A stretch of DNA of 11,633 nt, taken from a virus. Position 1 is the stretch's first letter; each line of letters opens with the position of its first letter. Made by a program: the position numbers and the translations under genes. The stretch lies in the UHGV virus genome UHGV-0141986, one strand, 5' to 3'. Positions 1 through 11,633 of this stretch are shown piece after piece. Under the pieces are notes generated by a model that worked only from the letters and a program-made list of their open reading frames with translations, did no database searches and was not told where the DNA came from.

Positions 1-605
1 GTTAATCTTAATGTAAGGCTCAGGCCAGTTTGGGTTTAATGCTTTGAGATAACGCTGTGTTCCATCTTCTATCAATCGCTTGAAGGTGGTTTCGCCTGTA
101 TCGTGCATCAATGCAATAACGTCGTCACCGTGGCAGGCAGGGACTTCGGGATCAACAAAAATCATGTCTCCAGGGCGGTACTCATCAATCATTGAATCAC
201 CAATCACCCGCAAGATATAAGTCATTTCGCCACAGGGTACAGGGCAGGGATAAGTTTCTGCTGTGCTCAAATCAACCTCAGAATAGCCAACTTCTTTCCA
301 TGCTCCGGCCTGTACCCATGATATGACAGGGACTAACGTTATTTGTTTGTTAGTGATTGAAACATCAGGTTTTTTTGTGATGTTCGTTGTCTGGTGTTCT
401 TGATCAAGCCATCCGACAGGCAGGTCGAAACATTTTTCGATGTGCCGTGCCATGCTGTCACCGATATTTTAGTAGCGCCATCCCCCATAAACCTGCTGGT
501 TTGGGTTGGCTCGCGATCAATCATGGTGGCAAAGGATGAATTTCCGCCAACACCATCTCTCAGTTTTCTGGCGTTAGACCGCCGGATGTCATGGATTGTT
601 TTCAT
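1..605 (-). pseudogene. cI-type prophage repressor (N-terminal HTH plus S24/LexA-like autopeptidase domain); C-terminus runs off the window start; apparent 1-nt frameshift near 466-471
   Basis: Minus-strand translation from 453 down to 1 gives MARHIEKCFDLPVGWLDQEH...VPVISWVQAGAW...ILRVIGDSMIDEYRPGDMIFVDPEVPACHGDDVIALMHDTGETTFKRLIEDGTQRYLKALNPNWPEPYIKIN, with the GDSM serine and TFKRL lysine motifs typical of S24 peptidases. The HTH part (MKTIHDIRRSNARKL...SFATMIDREPTQTSRFMGDG, track ORF 339..605) is in a different frame. The two frames can only be joined by a 1-nt indel around the T4 run at 467-470. Confidence 0.6.
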
Positions 606-695
606 AACGAAATTAAAACCTTTGTACCGATAAGGTGCAAGTATCTTGAAGGTTCATTTCAATCATGTAATATGTATACCGGAGGTACATATTGT
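606..695. promoter_or_regulatory. Divergent immunity-region promoter/operator: candidate rightward promoter (-35 TTGAAG 646-651, -10 TAATAT 668-673), candidate leftward leaderless promoter (-35 at 640-635, -10 at 617-612), dyad operators
   Basis: Intergenic region between divergent repressor and Cro-like genes. Inverted repeats ACCTT(618-622)-N9-AAGGT(632-636) and TTGAA(646-650)-N7-TTCAA(658-662); third AAGGT half-site at 649-653. Hexamers read by eye, not scored. Confidence 0.4.
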
Positions 696-896
696 ATGAA
701 AGCGTATTGGGACTCTTTAACCAAAGAACAGCAGGGCGAGTTGGCCGGAAAAGTTGGCTCAACACCTGGCTACTTACGGCTGGTTTTCAATGGTTATAAA
801 AAAGCCAGTTTTGTGCTGGCGAAAAAACTTGAGCAATGCACGTCAGGTGCAATTACGAAATCTGACTTAAGACCGGATATCTATCCGAAAGATTAA
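696..896 (+). CDS. Cro-like HTH transcriptional regulator (YdaS-type Cro/CI family)
   Basis: 66 aa: MKAYWDSLTKEQQGELAGKVGSTPGYLRLVFNGYKKASFVLAKKLEQCTSGAITKSDLRPDIYPKD. GGAGG at 681-685 precedes ATG 696. Track ORF 591..896 has an implausible N-terminal extension into the operator region. Confidence 0.85.
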   Translation: MKAYWDSLTKEQQGELAGKVGSTPGYLRLVFNGYKKASFVLAKKLEQCTSGAITKSDLRPDIYPKD

Positions 897-927: not shown

Positions 928-1491
928 ATGAGGCTAACCGTGGGTAAGTATCACTGGAAAGTAGAAAAACAGCCTGAGTGGTACGTGAAAGCTGTCAGAA
1001 AAACTATCGCAGCGTTGCCGGGTGGTTACGCTGAAGCAGCTGACTGGCTGGATGTAACAGAGAACGCATTATTTAACCGCCTTCGTGCCGATGGCGATCA
1101 GATTTTCCCGCTGGGATGGGCAATGGTTTTACAGCGCGCGGCTGGCACTCACTACATTGCGGATGCTGTCGCACAGTCTGCTGGTGGGGTGTTCGTATCG
1201 CTTCCTGAAATTGAGGAAGTAGAGAACGCCGATATAAACCAGCGCCTGCTGGAAGTCATCGAACAGATCGGGAATTACTCAAAGCAGATTCGTTCGGCAA
1301 TCGAAGATGGGGTCGTGGAGCCACACGAGCAGACAGCAATTAATGATGAGTTGTATCTGTCAATTTCGAAGCTCCAGGAGCATGCAGCACTGGTCTACAA
1401 AATCTTTTGCGCCCCAGAAAAGAGTGACGCCCGCGAGTGTGCAGCTCCGGGCGTCGTGGCGTTTTGTGTCTGTGGAGAAACTAACGCATGA
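928..1491 (+). CDS. CII-like phage regulatory protein (CP76 / YdaT-like family); true start may be the in-frame GTG at 940
   Basis: 187-aa ORF directly after the cro-like gene. The segment NALFNRLRADGDQIFPLGWAMVL...YIADAVAQ resembles the HTH region of CII(CP76)-type regulators as I recall them. GAGG at 930-933 sits 6 nt before GTG 940. Confidence 0.65.
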   Translation: MRLTVGKYHWKVEKQPEWYVKAVRKTIAALPGGYAEAADWLDVTENALFNRLRADGDQIFPLGWAMVLQRAAGTHYIADAVAQSAGGVFVSLPEIEEVENADINQRLLEVIEQIGNYSKQIRSAIEDGVVEPHEQTAINDELYLSISKLQEHAALVYKIFCAPEKSDARECAAPGVVAFCVCGETNA

Positions 1492-2299: not shown

Positions 2300-2528
2300 T
2301 CCGTTGATCCTCAATATTTGCCGTTTGCTTCAGCGTAAAAAAACATCAATTCCTACCGTTGGTCAGTGGTATACCACGCCTGCAGGGCATGTTCTACGTG
2401 TTAGCCTGGTTGACCGTGAATGTCAGAAGGTGGTTTGTGAACCGCTGGGCCGTAATTACCGCGTCAGTATGCCGCTTATAGCCTTTCGCTCCGGAAAAAA
2501 CATGAAGCATCTCGGAGGTGCAGCATGA
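2292..2528 (+). CDS. Hypothetical small phage protein (78 aa), possible paralog of the 1637-1816 product
   Basis: ATG 2292 with GGAGGG at 2279-2284. Segment GQWYTTPAGHVLRVSLVDRECQKVVCEPLGRNYRVSMPLIAF shares a Y..G.V.V...RV...YP.EC..P..F-type pattern with the 1637-1816 product. Stop overlaps the next start (ATGA at 2525). Confidence 0.6.
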   Translation: MLNPLILNICRLLQRKKTSIPTVGQWYTTPAGHVLRVSLVDRECQKVVCEPLGRNYRVSMPLIAFRSGKNMKHLGGAA

Positions 2529-3364
2529 GTATGGAGCTGATGGTTAAAGCGATGAAAATTCGAGTGGGTAATCCATTGCGAAAACTGGTTCTGATCAAGC
2601 TGGCTGATAATGCCAGCGATCAGGGTGAGTGCTGGCCCAGCTACCAGCATATTGCTGACCAGTGCGAGATTAGCAAACGTTCTGTGATGAATCATATTGC
2701 GGCCCTTTGTGAGTCCGGGCTGGTAAAAAAAGTCACCCGGAAAGGTGAAAAAGGTAACTCAAGTAATATCTATCTCCTTCATCTGGATGGTGCAGGAGAT
2801 TCACTAGGGGGTAGTGCAAATAATTCACTATCTGGTGCAGCAAATTCACCAGGTAGTGCAGGAGTTGCACCAGGTAGTGCAGGAGTTGCACCAGGGGGTA
2901 GTGCAGGAGATTCACCCAGAACCAGTCACTCTTTTGAACCAGTCAAAGAATCAGTCAATGAACCAATAGCTGTTGGTGCATCTGCTGATGAGTCTGTGCG
3001 AGTTCGTTCAAACCGACCGGAATACTCTCCGGAGTTTGAGCAGGCATGGCTGGCATATCCCAAACGTGCTGGTGGCAATTCAAAATCAGCAGCCTTCAAA
3101 GCCTGGAAAGCCCGTTTGAACGAGGGGGTAAACCCCGAAACCATGCTGGAAGGTGTGAATCGCTACGCGGGCTGGGTATCTGCGATGGGCAATAGCGGTA
3201 CACAATTTGTGAAACAGGCTGTCACGTTCTTTGGTCCGGATCGTCATTTCGAAGAATCCTGGGAAGTTCCTGCGGTATCTGCAGCCAGACGCGAGGACCC
3301 GTACTTCAAAGCCAGTTACGACAAAGTGGACTACAGCCAGATCCCGGCAGGATTCAGGGGGTGA
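2525..3364 (+). CDS. Phage replication initiation protein (N-terminal winged-HTH replisome-organizer domain, Gly/Ser/Ala-rich linker, C-terminal domain)
   Basis: 279 aa. N-terminus LRKLVLIKLADNASDQGECWPSYQHIADQCEISKRSVMNHIAALCESGLVKKV matches the HTH_36-type domain of phage replication initiators (from memory). GGAGG at 2513-2517. The linker is encoded by the repeat array at 2789-2917. Confidence 0.75.
   Translation: MSMELMVKAMKIRVGNPLRKLVLIKLADNASDQGECWPSYQHIADQCEISKRSVMNHIAALCESGLVKKVTRKGEKGNSSNIYLLHLDGAGDSLGGSANNSLSGAANSPGSAGVAPGSAGVAPGGSAGDSPRTSHSFEPVKESVNEPIAVGASADESVRVRSNRPEYSPEFEQAWLAYPKRAGGNSKSAAFKAWKARLNEGVNPETMLEGVNRYAGWVSAMGNSGTQFVKQAVTFFGPDRHFEESWEVPAVSAARREDPYFKASYDKVDYSQIPAGFRG
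2789..2917. repeat. Array of six iteron-like direct repeats (core GTGCA-N5-TKCAC, 21-24 bp spacing) inside the replication gene; candidate replication origin
   Basis: Core elements start at 2790, 2814, 2835, 2856, 2877 and 2901. Units at 2852-2872 and 2873-2893 are identical 21-mers (GGTAGTGCAGGAGTTGCACCA). Each core has internal dyad symmetry (GTGCA / TGCAC). Confidence 0.6.
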
Positions 3365-3855: not shown

Positions 3856-4478
3856 TGAGTAATAAATATTGCCAGGAGCTGGTGGAGCTGCGGAACAAAC
3901 CAGCCCATGAACTGAAGGAAGTGGGCGATCAGTGGCGCACGCCGGATAACATTTTCTGGGGAATTAACACCCTGTTTGGCCCGTTTGTCCTGGATCTGTT
4001 TACTGACGGTGATAACGCCAAATGTACCGCGTATTACACGGCGGAAGACAACGCGCTGGCGCATGACTGGTCAGAACGTCTTGCGGAGCTTAAAGGTGCT
4101 GCCTTTGGTAATCCCCCATACAGCCGCGCCAGTCAGCATGAGGGGCAATACATCACCGGCATGCGTGATAAAGGCGGGCGCTATGTTTTCCTGATCAAAG
4201 CTGCCACCAGCGAAGTGTGGTGGCCGGAAGATGCAGATCATATTGCTTTTATTCGCGGGCGTATTGGTTTTGAACTGCCTGCCTGGTTTATCCCGAAAGA
4301 TGAGAAGCAGGTGCCGACAGGCGCTTTCTTCGCTGGTGCTATTGCTGTTTTCGACAAGACCTGGAAGGGACCGGCAATCAGCTACATCGGGCGCGATGAA
4401 CTTGAGGCATGTGGTGAGGCGTTTCTGGCGCAGGTTCGCCAGCAGGCGGAAAAACTGGTCAGGGAGATGGCGGCATGA
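3855..4478 (+). CDS. Phage DNA N-6-adenine methyltransferase (Dam, phage-type)
   Basis: MSNKYCQELVELRNKPAHELKEVGDQWRTPDNIFWGINTLFGPFVLDLFTDGDNAKCTAYYTAEDNALAHDWSE...AAFGNPPYS carries the NPPY catalytic motif and the N-terminal WxTP signature. Track start 3822 overlaps the upstream gene; ATG 3855 is preferred. Confidence 0.85.
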   Translation: MSNKYCQELVELRNKPAHELKEVGDQWRTPDNIFWGINTLFGPFVLDLFTDGDNAKCTAYYTAEDNALAHDWSERLAELKGAAFGNPPYSRASQHEGQYITGMRDKGGRYVFLIKAATSEVWWPEDADHIAFIRGRIGFELPAWFIPKDEKQVPTGAFFAGAIAVFDKTWKGPAISYIGRDELEACGEAFLAQVRQQAEKLVREMAA

Positions 4479-4801
4479 CGACTTTAACTCAATGCCAGCA
4501 GCAGGTGCTGGATATGCTGATTTCTTATCAGAAAGAACGTGGCTTCCCGCCAACCAATCAGGAGGTGGCAACCATGCTGGGATACCGTTCAGTGAATGCA
4601 GCGGTGGAGCATCTTCGCGCACTGGAGAAAAAAGGCGTCATCACGATAAAGCGTGGTGTGGCCCGGGGGATCACGCTTCATACCGTGGTGAAGGACGACG
4701 ACAGCGAGGCGGTCGGGATTATCCGCTCACTGCTTGCCGGTGAGGAAAACGCCAGGCTGCGTGCAGCCCACTGGTTACATGAGAGGGGCCTGAAAGTATG
4801 A
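4475..4801 (+). CDS. LexA-like protein with DNA-binding domain only (no S24 peptidase domain)
   Basis: 108 aa. First ~70 aa (MTTLTQCQQQVLDMLISYQKERGFPPTNQEVATMLGYRSVNAAVEHLRALEKKGVITIKRGVARGITLH) align by eye to the E. coli LexA N-terminal winged helix. The 39-aa tail has no Ser/Lys peptidase motifs. ATGA overlap with Dam stop. Confidence 0.8.
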   Translation: MTTLTQCQQQVLDMLISYQKERGFPPTNQEVATMLGYRSVNAAVEHLRALEKKGVITIKRGVARGITLHTVVKDDDSEAVGIIRSLLAGEENARLRAAHWLHERGLKV

Positions 4802-7181: not shown

Positions 7182-7934
7182 ATGAACCTTGAAGCCTTAC
7201 CAAAATATTACTCCCCAAAATCTCCAAAATTGAGTGATGACGCACCGGCGACAGGCTCTGGTGGTTTAACGATTACGGATGTGATGGCTGCGCAGGGGAT
7301 GGTGCAATCGAAAGCACCGCTTGGGTTTGCCTTATTCCTGGCAAAAGTTGGTGTTCAGGATCCTCAGTTTGCGATTGAAGGTCTGCTCAATTACGCGATG
7401 GCACTGGATAACCCGACATTGAATAAATTGAGTGAAGAAACCCGGCTACAGATTATTCCTTACCTTGTGAATTTTGCCTTTGCTGATTATTCCAGGTCTG
7501 CGGCAAGTAAGGCTCGTTGTGAGCATTGTGCTGGTACTGGATTTCATAATGTATTGCGCGAAGTGGTGAAACACTCCAGAAGCGGGGAATCTGTTATCAA
7601 AGAAGAGTGGGTGAAGGAACTATGTCAGCATTGCCATGGTAAGGGAGAAGTCAGCACAGCGTGCAGAGGGTGTAAGGGTAAAGGTATTGTCCTGGATGAA
7701 AAAAGGACCCGGCTTCATGGCACACCTGTTTATAAGATTTGTGGGCGTTGCAATGGAAAACGGTTTAGTCGTTTACCAACCACACTGGCGCGGCATCATG
7801 TCCAGAAGCTGGTACCGGACCTGAGTGATTATCAGTGGTATAAAGGATATGCAAATGTCATTGATAAACTGGTTACAAAGTGCTGGCAGGAGGAATCTTA
7901 CGCTGAAGCACAATTGAGAAAGGTGACGAGATAA
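7182..7934 (+). CDS. Late-gene antitermination protein Q (QuuQ-like, phage 21/82 type)
   Basis: 250 aa with multiple Cys pairs (CEHCAGTG, CQHCHGKG, CRGCKGKG, CGRCNGKRF). GGAG at 7171-7174 precedes ATG 7182. Followed by a promoter-plus-terminator leader, as expected for Q. Confidence 0.85.
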   Translation: MNLEALPKYYSPKSPKLSDDAPATGSGGLTITDVMAAQGMVQSKAPLGFALFLAKVGVQDPQFAIEGLLNYAMALDNPTLNKLSEETRLQIIPYLVNFAFADYSRSAASKARCEHCAGTGFHNVLREVVKHSRSGESVIKEEWVKELCQHCHGKGEVSTACRGCKGKGIVLDEKRTRLHGTPVYKICGRCNGKRFSRLPTTLARHHVQKLVPDLSDYQWYKGYANVIDKLVTKCWQEESYAEAQLRKVTR

Positions 7935-7955: not shown

Positions 7956-7983
7956 GACGTGATGCTTGCATTTTCAAAAAATA
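7956..7983 (+). promoter_or_regulatory. Candidate late promoter PR' (-35 TTGCAT 7956-7961, 16-bp spacer, -10 TAAAAT 7978-7983)
   Basis: Located directly downstream of Q and about 55 nt upstream of a strong intrinsic terminator, the arrangement expected for a Q-modified late leader. Hexamers identified by eye. Confidence 0.35.
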
Positions 7984-8568: not shown

Positions 8569-8867
8569 AAAATTCCTTAATACTGATAACTTGGCGCACT
8601 ATACACACGTTCCTGAAGAAAGCTATAGTTTTTTGATGGGGTTGAAGATGGCTGGATGTCTAAAATAAACATTGCTTCATATGTTCAACTATGCGTTAAT
8701 GATTGCGTCGGTTTGAAGAACAGACGATATACGAAGTAGTTTACTAAAGCAGTTCTCATTTCAGGTGTTATTCACTTATTCCTTCTTTGAGTCTCTCCAA
8801 TTAAGTACGAAGTCGTTTCTGTTATACAAGCCATTTATGCCGAAAGGCTCAAGTTAAGGAATGTAGA
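8569..8867. promoter_or_regulatory. Divergent cspF/cspB promoter region and long cspB 5' UTR
   Basis: 299-bp AT-rich intergenic region between divergent csp genes. Long structured 5' UTRs are a known property of cold-shock mRNAs. TAAGGA SD 7 nt before cspB ATG. Individual elements not resolved. Confidence 0.35.
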
Positions 8868-9083
8868 ATGTCAAATAAAATGACTGGTTTAGTAAAATGG
8901 TTTAACGCTGATAAAGGTTTTGGCTTTATTTCTCCTGTTGATGGTAGTAAAGATGTGTTTGTGCATTTTTCTGCGATTCAGAATGATAATTATCGAACCT
9001 TATTTGAAGGTCAAAAGGTTACCTTCTCTGTAGAGAGTGGTGCTAAAGGTCCTGCAGCAGCAAATGTCATAATTACTGATTAA
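8868..9083 (+). CDS. cspB: Cold-shock protein CspB-like (CspA family)
   Basis: [71 protein letters not shown] with RNP1 (KGFGFI) and RNP2 (VFVHF) motifs. Confidence 0.9.
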
Positions 9084-9364
9084 AATTCATAGTTTGTCTG
9101 TATACGATAACGAAGAAGGCTGATGCCTGAGTGGAGATACAGACAGAGTGGTGAATATTGGATCTCTTTAATAAATAGTAAGGAGGTCCAATACATGAAA
9201 CAATGGCCAGCATATTTGGCAATAACTTAATCAGGAAAAGTATGCTAACCATTGTGGTGAAGTGCAGGTTTGCTGCATGAATAGTTTTACAGCAGAAGCT
9301 AACTGCTGGCATAGCAAAACAAAGTGCGTAAGTGGATGACTCCCACAAAAAGTACCACAATATT

Positions 9365-9617: not shown

Positions 9618-9835
9618 AGGCTTTTCCTGTATAAATGGCCGTATACAGTACACTAAATATGAAAACATATCTCGTATTATTATTTAACATATGATTTTCT
9701 TTTAAAATAATTACCCACATTTTTAATGTGTCTGTTTTTTAGCGCCGTTGAGAACAACGTTTGCTATAAAAACTACCCCATAGACTCCGATCTTTTCAAA
9801 CATATTGCACCATCTGTGTACATCGGGGTGAGGAT

Positions 9836-10051
9836 ATGAAATCAATGGATAAGTTAACAACAGGTATCGCCTATGGCACATCGGCTGGTAATGCTGGTTT
9901 CTGGGCATTGCAGTTACTCGATAAAGTAACTCCGTCACAGTGGGCTGCAATCGGTGTGCTGGGTAGTCTGGTATTTGGCTTGCTGACGTACCTGACAAAC
10001 CTTTATTTCAAGATTAAAGAAGACAAGCGTAAGGTTGCACGGGGAGAGTAA
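9836..10051 (+). CDS. Class II holin (phage-21 S-type pinholin) with dual-start motif MKSMDK
   Basis: [71 protein letters not shown]. Two transmembrane segments and a charged C-terminus. Starts at Met1 and Met4 mirror the S21 antiholin/holin pair. GAGG precedes the ATG. Confidence 0.9.
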
Positions 10052-10055
10052 TTCA

Positions 10056-10154
10056 ATGACACAAAACTATGAACTGATTGTGAAAGGGATCCGCAATTTT
10101 GAGAATAAAGTTGCGGTAACTGTAGCTCCTTTTCCTTCTCCGGCAACAAGTTGA
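10056..10154 (+). pseudogene. Truncated ydfR-like gene (33-codon N-terminal fragment)
   Basis: MTQNYELIVKGIRNFENKVAVTVAPFPSPATS-stop. The first ~24 residues match the YdfR N-terminus as I recall it; the sequence then diverges and terminates. GGAG at 10043-10046. Confidence 0.4.
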
Positions 10155-11368: not shown

Positions 11369-11633
11369 ATTAATATTAAATCGGATTATTTTTAGCGCTG
11401 AATGTGAAATTTAAATAAAAAGGACTCTTCCATGAGTCAAAATCCTTGAAATCTTAAGGGTAAGATAAAAGGTCATTAGACAGAATGACACGTTTTATTA
11501 ATAAATAAAGCTATTGTTTCATTCGTGTGTTTTTCTTTACAAAAGTAATCCTTGCTATGGTTGGTTAATCATGCGTTAACACTGATGCCCCCTCCCAGGA
11601 GCAGGTTCGTGTAAAAACTATGCTTAATAGCAC

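Follow-up and report, generated by a model that had tools for sequence, protein, structure and literature searches.

The stretch of DNA analysed here, referred to as the window, is an 11,633-nucleotide sequence from a virus (UHGV virus genome UHGV-0141986), and all coordinates given below are positions in it. Positions 606 to 695 form the intergenic gap between ymfK, a cI-like gene on the minus strand, and ymfT, a cro-like gene on the plus strand that is followed by the cII-like gene ymfL. This gene order is common to the window, to e14 of Escherichia coli K-12 and to phage SfV. The features of the locus are collected in Table 1.

Table 1. Genes, predicted promoter elements and candidate operators of the immunity region, with the offsets of the candidate operators from the cI ATG and their range in 18 lineages
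Feature	Position	Strand	Sequence and remarks	Offset from cI ATG	Range (18 lineages)
ymfK (cohE)	1..605	-	cI-like; predicted N-terminal DNA-binding region and C-terminal S24 peptidase domain		
PRM -10	612..617	-	TTTAAT; a 6-nt discriminator (611-606) separates it from the ATG at 605, the predicted +1		
OR3 (candidate operator)	623..639		TGTACC-GATAA-GGTGCA; overlaps PRM -35	+18	+18 to +19
PRM -35	635..640	-	TTGCAC; spacer of 17 nt to the -10; lies within the OR3 right arm		
OR2 (weak candidate)	640..656		AGTATC-TTGAA-GGTTCA; contains PR -35	+35	+35 to +36
PR -35	646..651	+	TTGAAG; 16 nt to the -10		
PR -10	668..673	+	TAATAT; predicted start near 679-681		
OR1 (candidate operator)	673..689		TGTATA-CCGGA-GGTACA; overlaps the end of PR -10, the predicted start and the ymfT Shine-Dalgarno sequence	+68	+68 to +69
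ymfT	696..896	+	cro-like; 66 aa; YdaS-family helix-turn-helix		
ymfL	928..1491	+	cII-like; 187 aa; follows cro in the rightward operon		
OL1 (candidate operator)				-737	-735 to -764
OL2 (candidate operator)				-757	-755 to -784

Positions 1 to 1000 of the window were 96-99.8% identical in nucleotide sequence to the phages 2H10 (99.6%), Ayreon, cdtI, SfV (96.4%) and SfIV and to Stx2c-converting phages. Copies with at least 96% identity were found in 26 phage records and in about 1,300 complete E. coli genomes. Among 5,426 complete E. coli genomes, 1,323 carried at least 80% of this segment, with the genes under the names ymfK, ymfT and ymfL, and up to four copies of the immunity region were present per genome. 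Alignment with e14 of K-12 gave a layout matching that of the window, and the SfV GenBank feature "putative operator region" mapped onto positions 622-690. The intergenic regions of e14 and SfV were 95-97% identical to that of the window; K-12 differed from it at positions 621, 630 and 677 and SfV at 633, 658 and 679, all of them in spacers. Judged by identity and gene order, the region is an immunity region of the e14/SfV lambdoid type. The element was already known, and the window holds an ordinary further copy of a common E. coli prophage family.

YmfT matched the Pfam models YdaS_toxin and HTH_3, in both cases below threshold, and weakly matched the solved Cro proteins 8co2 and 8c7k; its orthologues bear the annotation cro in SfV and cdtI, and ymfT in E. 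coli. A Shine-Dalgarno sequence, GGAGG, precedes ymfT at 681-685. YmfL matched Phage_CP76, the Pfam model of the phage regulatory protein CII (E = 1.2e-14), in agreement with the annotation of its relatives. An earlier interpretation of the window made from its letters alone (hereafter, the sequence-only reading) had proposed an immunity switch between divergent repressor and cro-like genes, and this is borne out by the identity to known phages, by the annotation in relatives and by the Pfam matches.

The repressor gene and the state of its copy in the window

The N-terminus of YmfK, read leftwards from 605 on the minus strand, is MKTIHDIRRSNARKLRD..., and the final 69 nucleotides of the gene fall past the left edge of the window. 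The Pfam model Peptidase_S24 matched the intact 2H10 allele (E = 1.5e-26), and the C-terminal domain of YmfK is homologous to that of lambda CI. Direct reading of the translation showed an Ala-Gly pair (in VQAGAW) and the serine motif GDSM, and the Lys of TFKRL in YmfK aligned with the lambda CI motif TFKKL. No Pfam helix-turn-helix model matched the N-terminal domain at E ≤ 0.01.

In the window, however, the S24 motifs sit in another frame than the N-terminal domain (...GDSMARHIEKCFDLPVGWLDQ...VQAGAW...GDSMIDEY...TFKRL...). Alignment to SfV and 2H10 revealed a 1-bp deletion, the window having four T residues at 467-470 where its relatives have five, so that the ymfK frame is lost after codon 46; the remaining open reading frame has 88 codons' worth of protein (88 aa, 339-605), and an intact repressor frame of 224 aa is absent. 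The repressor ATG had been placed at 605 by the sequence-only reading; this start position is correct, but the gene downstream of it is frameshifted here, a lesion that did not figure in that reading.

None of the 5,426 complete E. coli genomes has the run of four T residues at 467-470, nor does any of 83 close relatives, defined as loci with an identical or near-identical Cro. A second change private to the window is the substitution A637G, which affects the OR3 right arm and the PRM -35 alike: A637 was present in all 83 close relatives and G637 in none of the 5,426 genomes. When compared with e14 and SfV, the window alone carries A637G and the ymfK deletion. No identical copy of its exact intergenic sequence was found in 1,149 E. 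coli genomes. Elsewhere in the window we detected another private deletion reducing five T residues to four, in non-coding DNA at 7971-7974 and likewise absent from all 5,426 genomes, as well as a private 24-bp deletion at 2038/2039, at the edges of which a short AATT repeat was seen by eye in the alignment, and a changed repeat copy number.

The switch in the window's copy thus appears damaged by the ymfK frameshift and A637G, and because the repressor frame is broken, the switch may not operate in this copy. The window's copy could then be a non-functional relic with real lesions, either silent or kept repressed by another prophage that shares its immunity type. The absence of both lesions from all the genomes and relatives surveyed speaks for such a relic, as does the resemblance of the other private changes (the 24-bp deletion and the repeat copy number) to real mutations, and repression in trans is plausible given that a genome may hold up to four copies of the immunity region. 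Against this, two identical homopolymer undercalls in 11.6 kb are what errors in sequencing or assembly would be expected to produce. These two deletions suggest sequencing error, whereas the A637G substitution and the 24-bp deletion look like real mutations. We therefore consider a relic with real lesions quite possible, if somewhat short of probable. Such a state of the window's copy fits alongside the explanation that we prefer for the family as a whole.

Promoters and the leaderless repressor mRNA

To extend the comparison of the intergenic region beyond its close relatives, species-representative genomes were scanned, which gave 16 distant loci whose repressors share 74-88% identity with YmfK. 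These loci belong to Pseudocitrobacter, Atlantibacter, Klebsiella, Leclercia, Phytobacter, Enterobacter, Pantoea, Trabulsiella, Kluyvera, Limnobaculum, Rahnella, Edwardsiella and others; together with K-12 and SfV they make up the 18 lineages referred to below. Both promoters proposed by the sequence-only reading, a rightward one of the form TTGAAG-16-TAATAT and a leftward one with its -10 about 6 nt from the repressor ATG, lie at the coordinates given for them and held up in this comparison. For the rightward promoter (PR), the TTG of the -35 (646-648) was present in 17 of the 18 lineages (TTT in Pantoea), with variation in the last three bases; in the -10, A669 and T673 were invariant and position 5 nearly so, and the 16-nt spacing was constant. 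The PR start at 679-681 is a prediction from these elements.

For the leftward promoter (PRM), the -10 had the form NNNAAT and lay 6 nt from the ATG (7 in one lineage), with a variable discriminator; in most lineages it lacked the usual A at -11. Among the 83 close relatives no variable position was found from the PRM -10 to the ATG. The PRM -35 reads TTGTAC in every relative, and its columns were invariant except for the G637 of the window. Neither PRM nor PR was reported by a simple promoter scan, which required 9 of the 12 consensus positions where each of them has 8. The leftward promoter PL of K-12 (TTGACA-16-CATAAT) matches 11 of 12; its spacer holds OL1, and OL2 covers its start. A further leftward promoter, mirrored on the right arm of OR1 (TACAAT, 697-692), was rejected for want of a usable -35.

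On the minus strand the sequence reads TTTAAT-TTCGTT-ATG, and the ymfK ATG is not preceded by a Shine-Dalgarno sequence, which is the layout of a leaderless gene. According to differential RNA-seq in K-12, transcription of ymfK starts on the A of its ATG, so that the leader has a length of 0 nt (Romero et al., 2014; PMC4681348, Table S3), and just five leaderless mRNAs, that of ymfK among them, are listed for E. coli K-12 (PMC4681348). The leaderless repressor transcript that the sequence-only reading had suggested is thus already published for the K-12 copy. K-12 is identical to the window over 560-620, which includes the -10, the discriminator and the ATG, while the -35 of the window differs by one base; by extension from this orthologue, a leaderless start is predicted in the window too. 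The supplement of the same study (PMC4681348) has no start-site entry for ymfT or ymfJ, as is expected of repressed promoters.

Candidate operators in the intergenic region

The repeated and conserved element of the region is a 17-mer, TGTAYC-N5-GGTACA. When the window was searched for TGTAYC-N5-GRTACA with at most two mismatches, matches were found at 623, 640, 673 and 9806, with 1.15 expected in 11.6 kb. The first three are the candidate operators OR3, OR2 and OR1. The fourth match, a 17-mer at 9806-9822 ahead of the holin gene (11.6 bits with the matrix described below), was treated as due to chance, because the same sequence occurs in phages such as PhiR63_1, whose match to the window starts at 912 and so excludes cI-cro. 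The PR spacer was also inspected by eye at 653-669 for a third repressor site like OL1, and no match to the consensus was seen.

In all relatives OR3 is a perfect dyad, TGTACC-N5-GGTACA, with the extended form TTGTACC-N5-GGTACAA at 622-640. It spans positions -18 to -34 of PRM, the -35 included, so that its predicted role is autorepression or the shut-off of PRM by Cro. OR2, with two mismatches to the consensus, adjoins OR3 at 17 bp centre to centre, and its centre at 648 corresponds to -43 of the PRM start. OR1, with one mismatch, spans -7 to +10 of PR; an operator over the PR start and the ymfT Shine-Dalgarno sequence was absent from the sequence-only reading. The centres of the three sites (631, 648 and 681) are spaced by 17 and 33 bp. 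Several dyad sites thus overlap both promoters, as in a lambda-like multipartite operator, and the spacing of adjacent sites departs from the 23-24 bp of the lambda type.

The sites recur at PL/OL in relatives, OL itself lying past the left edge of the window. In SfV and K-12 the motif occurs twice directly past the cI stop codon (OL1 and OL2, 20 bp apart), and in the 16 distant loci the leftward sites lie 51-131 bp past it. Outside the sites, only two matches with at most two mismatches were found in about 85 kb of the 16 distant lineages. Throughout the 18 lineages the operator arms were invariant, apart from the OR2 left arm, which decays in four of them, and the 5-nt spacers were freely variable. 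Among the 83 close relatives the common polymorphisms spared the operator arms and the promoter hexamers, and those in OR1 were limited to the spacer and the Y position of the left arm.

A position weight matrix (PWM) was trained on OR3, OR1 and OL1 only, leaving OR2 out. OR3 scored 23.3 bits in its ancestral form and 16.0 bits in the window, and OR1 scored 18.5 bits. OR2 reached 9.8-12.3 bits in 11 of the 18 lineages, exceeding all 91,430 background 17-mers; in the four most distant lineages, where its left arm has decayed, the score was -9 to -1.5. The GGTTCA of OR2 was invariant in all 18 lineages despite its position in a promoter spacer. A literal search for the operator sequences in a library of papers returned no match. 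The operator map and its 17/33-bp geometry are those that conservation predicts.

Collectively, we judge it probable (about 0.85) that positions 606-695 are the OR region of an e14/SfV-type lambdoid prophage, with divergent PRM and PR promoters controlled from 17-bp repressor sites. The main rival within this scheme concerns the number of sites. Only OR3 and OR1 may bind the repressor, the invariant GGTTCA(T) at 651-657 being conserved for another reason, such as a contact specific to Cro (YmfT), a polymerase contact or another factor. The two mismatches of OR2 and the degraded left arm in distant lineages would be in keeping with this, as would its failure to pass the two-mismatch threshold in 4 of the 16 distant lineages, and its direct abutment on OR3 is an unusual geometry for two dimers. 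However, OR2 outscores the entire background in most lineages with a matrix to which it did not contribute, its register with OR3 is exact in all lineages, and a strong site with a weak neighbour is also seen at OL1/OL2. In lambda the centre of OR2 lies at -42 of PRM, a position that the -43 of the present OR2 matches. An OR with two operators is accordingly unlikely in our estimation, albeit worth keeping in mind, and we continue with three sites.

The geometry of the three sites also allows another mode of action, in which OR3 and OR2 would be occupied in a mutually exclusive manner, toggling PRM between activation and repression, or in which looping between OR1 and OR3 would replace the cooperativity of adjacent dimers. 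Both ideas follow from the location of the best operator on the PRM -35, abutting a weak site at -43, and from the distance of OR1, 33 and 50 bp away. We hold them to be rather improbable.

Two shorter dyads had been taken for the operators by the sequence-only reading, ACCTT (618-622)-N9-AAGGT (632-636) and TTGAA (646-650)-N7-TTCAA (658-662), with AAGGT as a shared half-site. Both strings are present exactly at these positions, the second dyad overlaps the PR -35, and AAGGT does occur again at 649-653, 17 bp from the first copy. The 90-nt gap (33% GC) contains four inverted repeats with 5-bp arms and spacers of 3-12 nt. Dinucleotide shuffles gave a mean of 1.2 such repeats, with at least two in 33% of shuffles (P = 0.33) and at least four at P = 0.067, and the dyad patterns were not enriched over the whole window.

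Comparison of half-site conservation in related prophages, which the same reading had put forward as a check, went against the dyads and in favour of TGTAYC-N5-GGTACA. Among the 83 close relatives, the most frequent polymorphisms fell in the arms of the dyads. Position 621 was T or C in a ratio of 42:41 and position 633 A or G in 65:18, C621 and G633 never occurring together, so that dyad 1 is broken by 621C or 633G in 59 of them without compensation. Position 658 varied in 27 and position 660 in 14 of the 83 loci, with no compensation at 650 or 648, and changes at 658-660 break dyad 2 in about 40. Neither dyad was found in the 16 distant lineages, despite their 74-88% identical repressors, and PL of the relatives carries two TGTAYC-N5-GGTACA 17-mers and neither dyad pattern. 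The symmetry axis of the first true operator is at 631, 4 bp from the 627 of the earlier assignment. The AAGGT repeat is real: its two copies form the inner edges of the right arms in a pair of adjoining 17-bp operators, AAGGTACA and AAGGTTCA, and it had been paired with the wrong partners. It is very improbable that the 5-bp dyads are the operators.

It is just as hard to credit that the palindromes act in RNA, a hairpin at 663-699 hiding the ymfT start and OR3 with its T run terminating leftward transcripts: RNA of 660-702 does fold at -12.6 kcal/mol (z = -3.7), the K-12 OR3 palindrome (-11.4 kcal/mol) is terminator-like by a simple scan and the OR1 symmetry reaches 13 positions from the centre in many lineages, but the PR -10 falls within the left arm of the hairpin (663-676), which would be missing from the PR transcript because the predicted start, at about 680, is downstream of it, RNA from 678 on does not fold unusually (z = 0.27), OR3 is followed by a T run that is short and interrupted (GGTTTTAATT), and conserved arms with variable spacers that recur on the PL core are the signature of protein sites.

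Proposed switch and comparison with known systems

In the OR arrangement that we favour, two divergent sigma-70 promoters would share the 90-bp gap. PRM, on the minus strand, would yield a leaderless mRNA for the cI-like and predicted RecA-cleavable YmfK, and PR, on the plus strand, would drive ymfT, ymfL and the early right operon. A repressor dimer would bind the 17-bp TGTAYC-N5-GGTACA sites. Repressor at OR1 and OR2 and at both OL sites would silence both early (lytic) operons, filling of OR3 by repressor or Cro would switch PRM off, and SOS-induced self-cleavage of the repressor would release both operons. The assignment of proteins to the sites and the order in which these are filled are, like the activation of PRM from OR2, parts of the scheme that we infer.

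Published transcriptome data from K-12 bear on this scheme. The e14 genes ymfJ, of the left arm, and ymfM, of the right arm, are induced late in the SOS response (PMC11002266), and genes of both arms belong to one co-regulated iModulon together with sulA and recN (PMC12132413). These data are consistent with a single SOS-sensitive repressor acting over both arms of e14.

The region resembles lambda OR in its divergent promoters separated by a gap of about 90 bp, in a leaderless cI-type mRNA with the -10 located 6 nt from the AUG, and in three 17-bp dyads lying over the PR start and -10, the PR -35 and PRM, with operators repeated at PL. The repressor, too, is of the S24 type, is predicted to cleave itself and shares the homologous C-terminal domain of lambda CI. 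In contrast, the operator sequence differs from that of lambda, and the spacings are 17 and 33 bp in the e14/SfV type and 23-24 bp in lambda, because of which pairwise cooperativity in the lambda style cannot be assumed. Unlike in lambda, the best match to the consensus in the e14/SfV type is the PRM-side OR3 and not OR1, two OL sites are detected, and the Cro analogue is a YdaS-family helix-turn-helix protein without the lambda Cro fold. The e14/SfV switch may be no simple copy of that of lambda.

Leaderless regulators are also found in other prophages of E. coli K-12, where racR of Rac (0-nt leader) and dicA of Qin (3-nt leader) are listed together with ymfK (PMC4681348). Each of the three genes faces a divergent cro-like gene, that of Rac being ydaS, the namesake of the YmfT family. 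The operators of racR and dicA are unrelated in sequence to those of the e14/SfV type. To our knowledge, RacR and DicA have no S24 self-cleavage domain.

The importance of these results lies mainly in correct annotation, and reaches little further. If its lesions are real, the window's copy would represent a natural double mutant of the circuit, combining a repressor-null allele with a change in OR3 and the PRM -35. For the family, the analysis provides a map of three OR and two OL candidate positions. This immunity type is present in about one quarter of complete E. coli genomes, in Stx2c- and CDT-converting phages and in Shigella serotype-converting phages, and since it is so widespread, a correct operator map would aid the prediction of homoimmunity, of the SOS inducibility of toxin phages and of the control of the e14 division inhibitor YmfM.

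Private changes in the ymfK coding sequence and in OR3

Analysis of the cI-like repressor gene ymfK revealed that a T5 run, read as A5 on the coding strand, has lost 1 bp (window positions 467-470), which shifts the reading frame after codon 46 and leaves an ORF of 88 aa (339-605). This deletion was found in no complete E. coli genome and in none of the 83 related loci. A second private T5-to-T4 deletion was observed at 7971-7974, in non-coding DNA just 3' of the Q antiterminator gene, and because this change is of the same type as the ymfK frameshift, it is possible that both are homopolymer sequencing errors.

The window also carries a private A-to-G substitution at position 637, within an operator arm of OR3, where all 83 close relatives have an A, as do all 17 remaining sequences in the alignment of 18 lineages. 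Owing to A637G, the -35 element of PRM, the leftward ymfK promoter, reads TTGCAC instead of TTGTAC, and the OR3 palindrome is weaker, with an RNA folding energy of -3.5 kcal/mol compared to -11.4 kcal/mol in the K-12 copy.

Symmetry around OR1 and an operator-like sequence near the holin gene

The symmetry of the predicted operator OR1 reaches arms of 14 nt (663-699; TCATGTAATATGTA and TACATATTGTATGA), which link the -10 element of the rightward promoter PR on one side with the start codon of the cro-like gene ymfT on the other. Many distant lineages show a partly extended OR1 symmetry, up to 13 positions from the centre. This extension could reflect wider protein contacts or merely AT-rich flanks.

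Far downstream, the holin gene starts at 9836 and is preceded, at a distance of 14 nt, by a 17-mer resembling the operators, TGCACCATCTGTGTACA (9806-9822; 11.6 bits on the operator position-weight matrix). Phages outside the homoimmune hits carry this 17-mer as well, e.g., PhiR63_1, whose match to the window begins only at position 912. The likeness to an operator at this site is probably due to chance.

Further features and mosaicism of the late region

Additional features are listed in the table.

Additional genes and RNA elements located in the window
Feature	Position	Remarks
isrK Hfq-binding RNA	1848-1924	Rfam match above gathering score
C4 antisense RNA	1949-2036	Rfam match above gathering score
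ash/antirepressor-like ORF	starts 2066	downstream of the isrK and C4 matches
helix-turn-helix/replication-type gene	2525-3364	contains 21-bp and 12-bp tandem repeats
108-aa ORF, nin-like region	4475-4801	YDC107 homologue annotated 'LexA family transcriptional regulator'
Q antiterminator gene	7182-7934	
cspA thermoregulator	8707-9146	full-length Rfam match, 156.7 bits; encloses cspB-like gene
cspB-like cold-shock gene	8868-9083	

The tandem repeats of the replication-type gene (21 bp in 3.2-3.5 copies, and a 12-bp repeat; 2810-2916 and 2936-2965) may be origin iterons, and their copy number differs in the nearest genome, that of E. coli YDC107 (L084), which lacks one 21-bp unit present in the window. 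The product of the 108-aa ORF is a second small LexA-like protein of the same element. The cspA thermoregulator and the cspB-like gene are located in the late region, with the Q antiterminator on one side and the lysis genes on the other.

At 10126/10127 and 11578-11580, two segments of YDC107 are absent from the window, one of 588 bp in the lysis region and another of about 1.5 kb, which holds cspI, ymcF, ynfN and gnsA/B-like genes. Both absences are unremarkable cases of module mosaicism in the late region.

A possible second immunity layer

Around the isrK and C4 matches, the window shows a private SNP at position 1821 and a private 24-bp deletion at 2038/2039, immediately after the C4 match. 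In SfV, the neighbouring orf37 is labelled 'immunity region'. Together, isrK, C4 and the ash/antirepressor-like ORF look like a second immunity layer resembling immI of P1.
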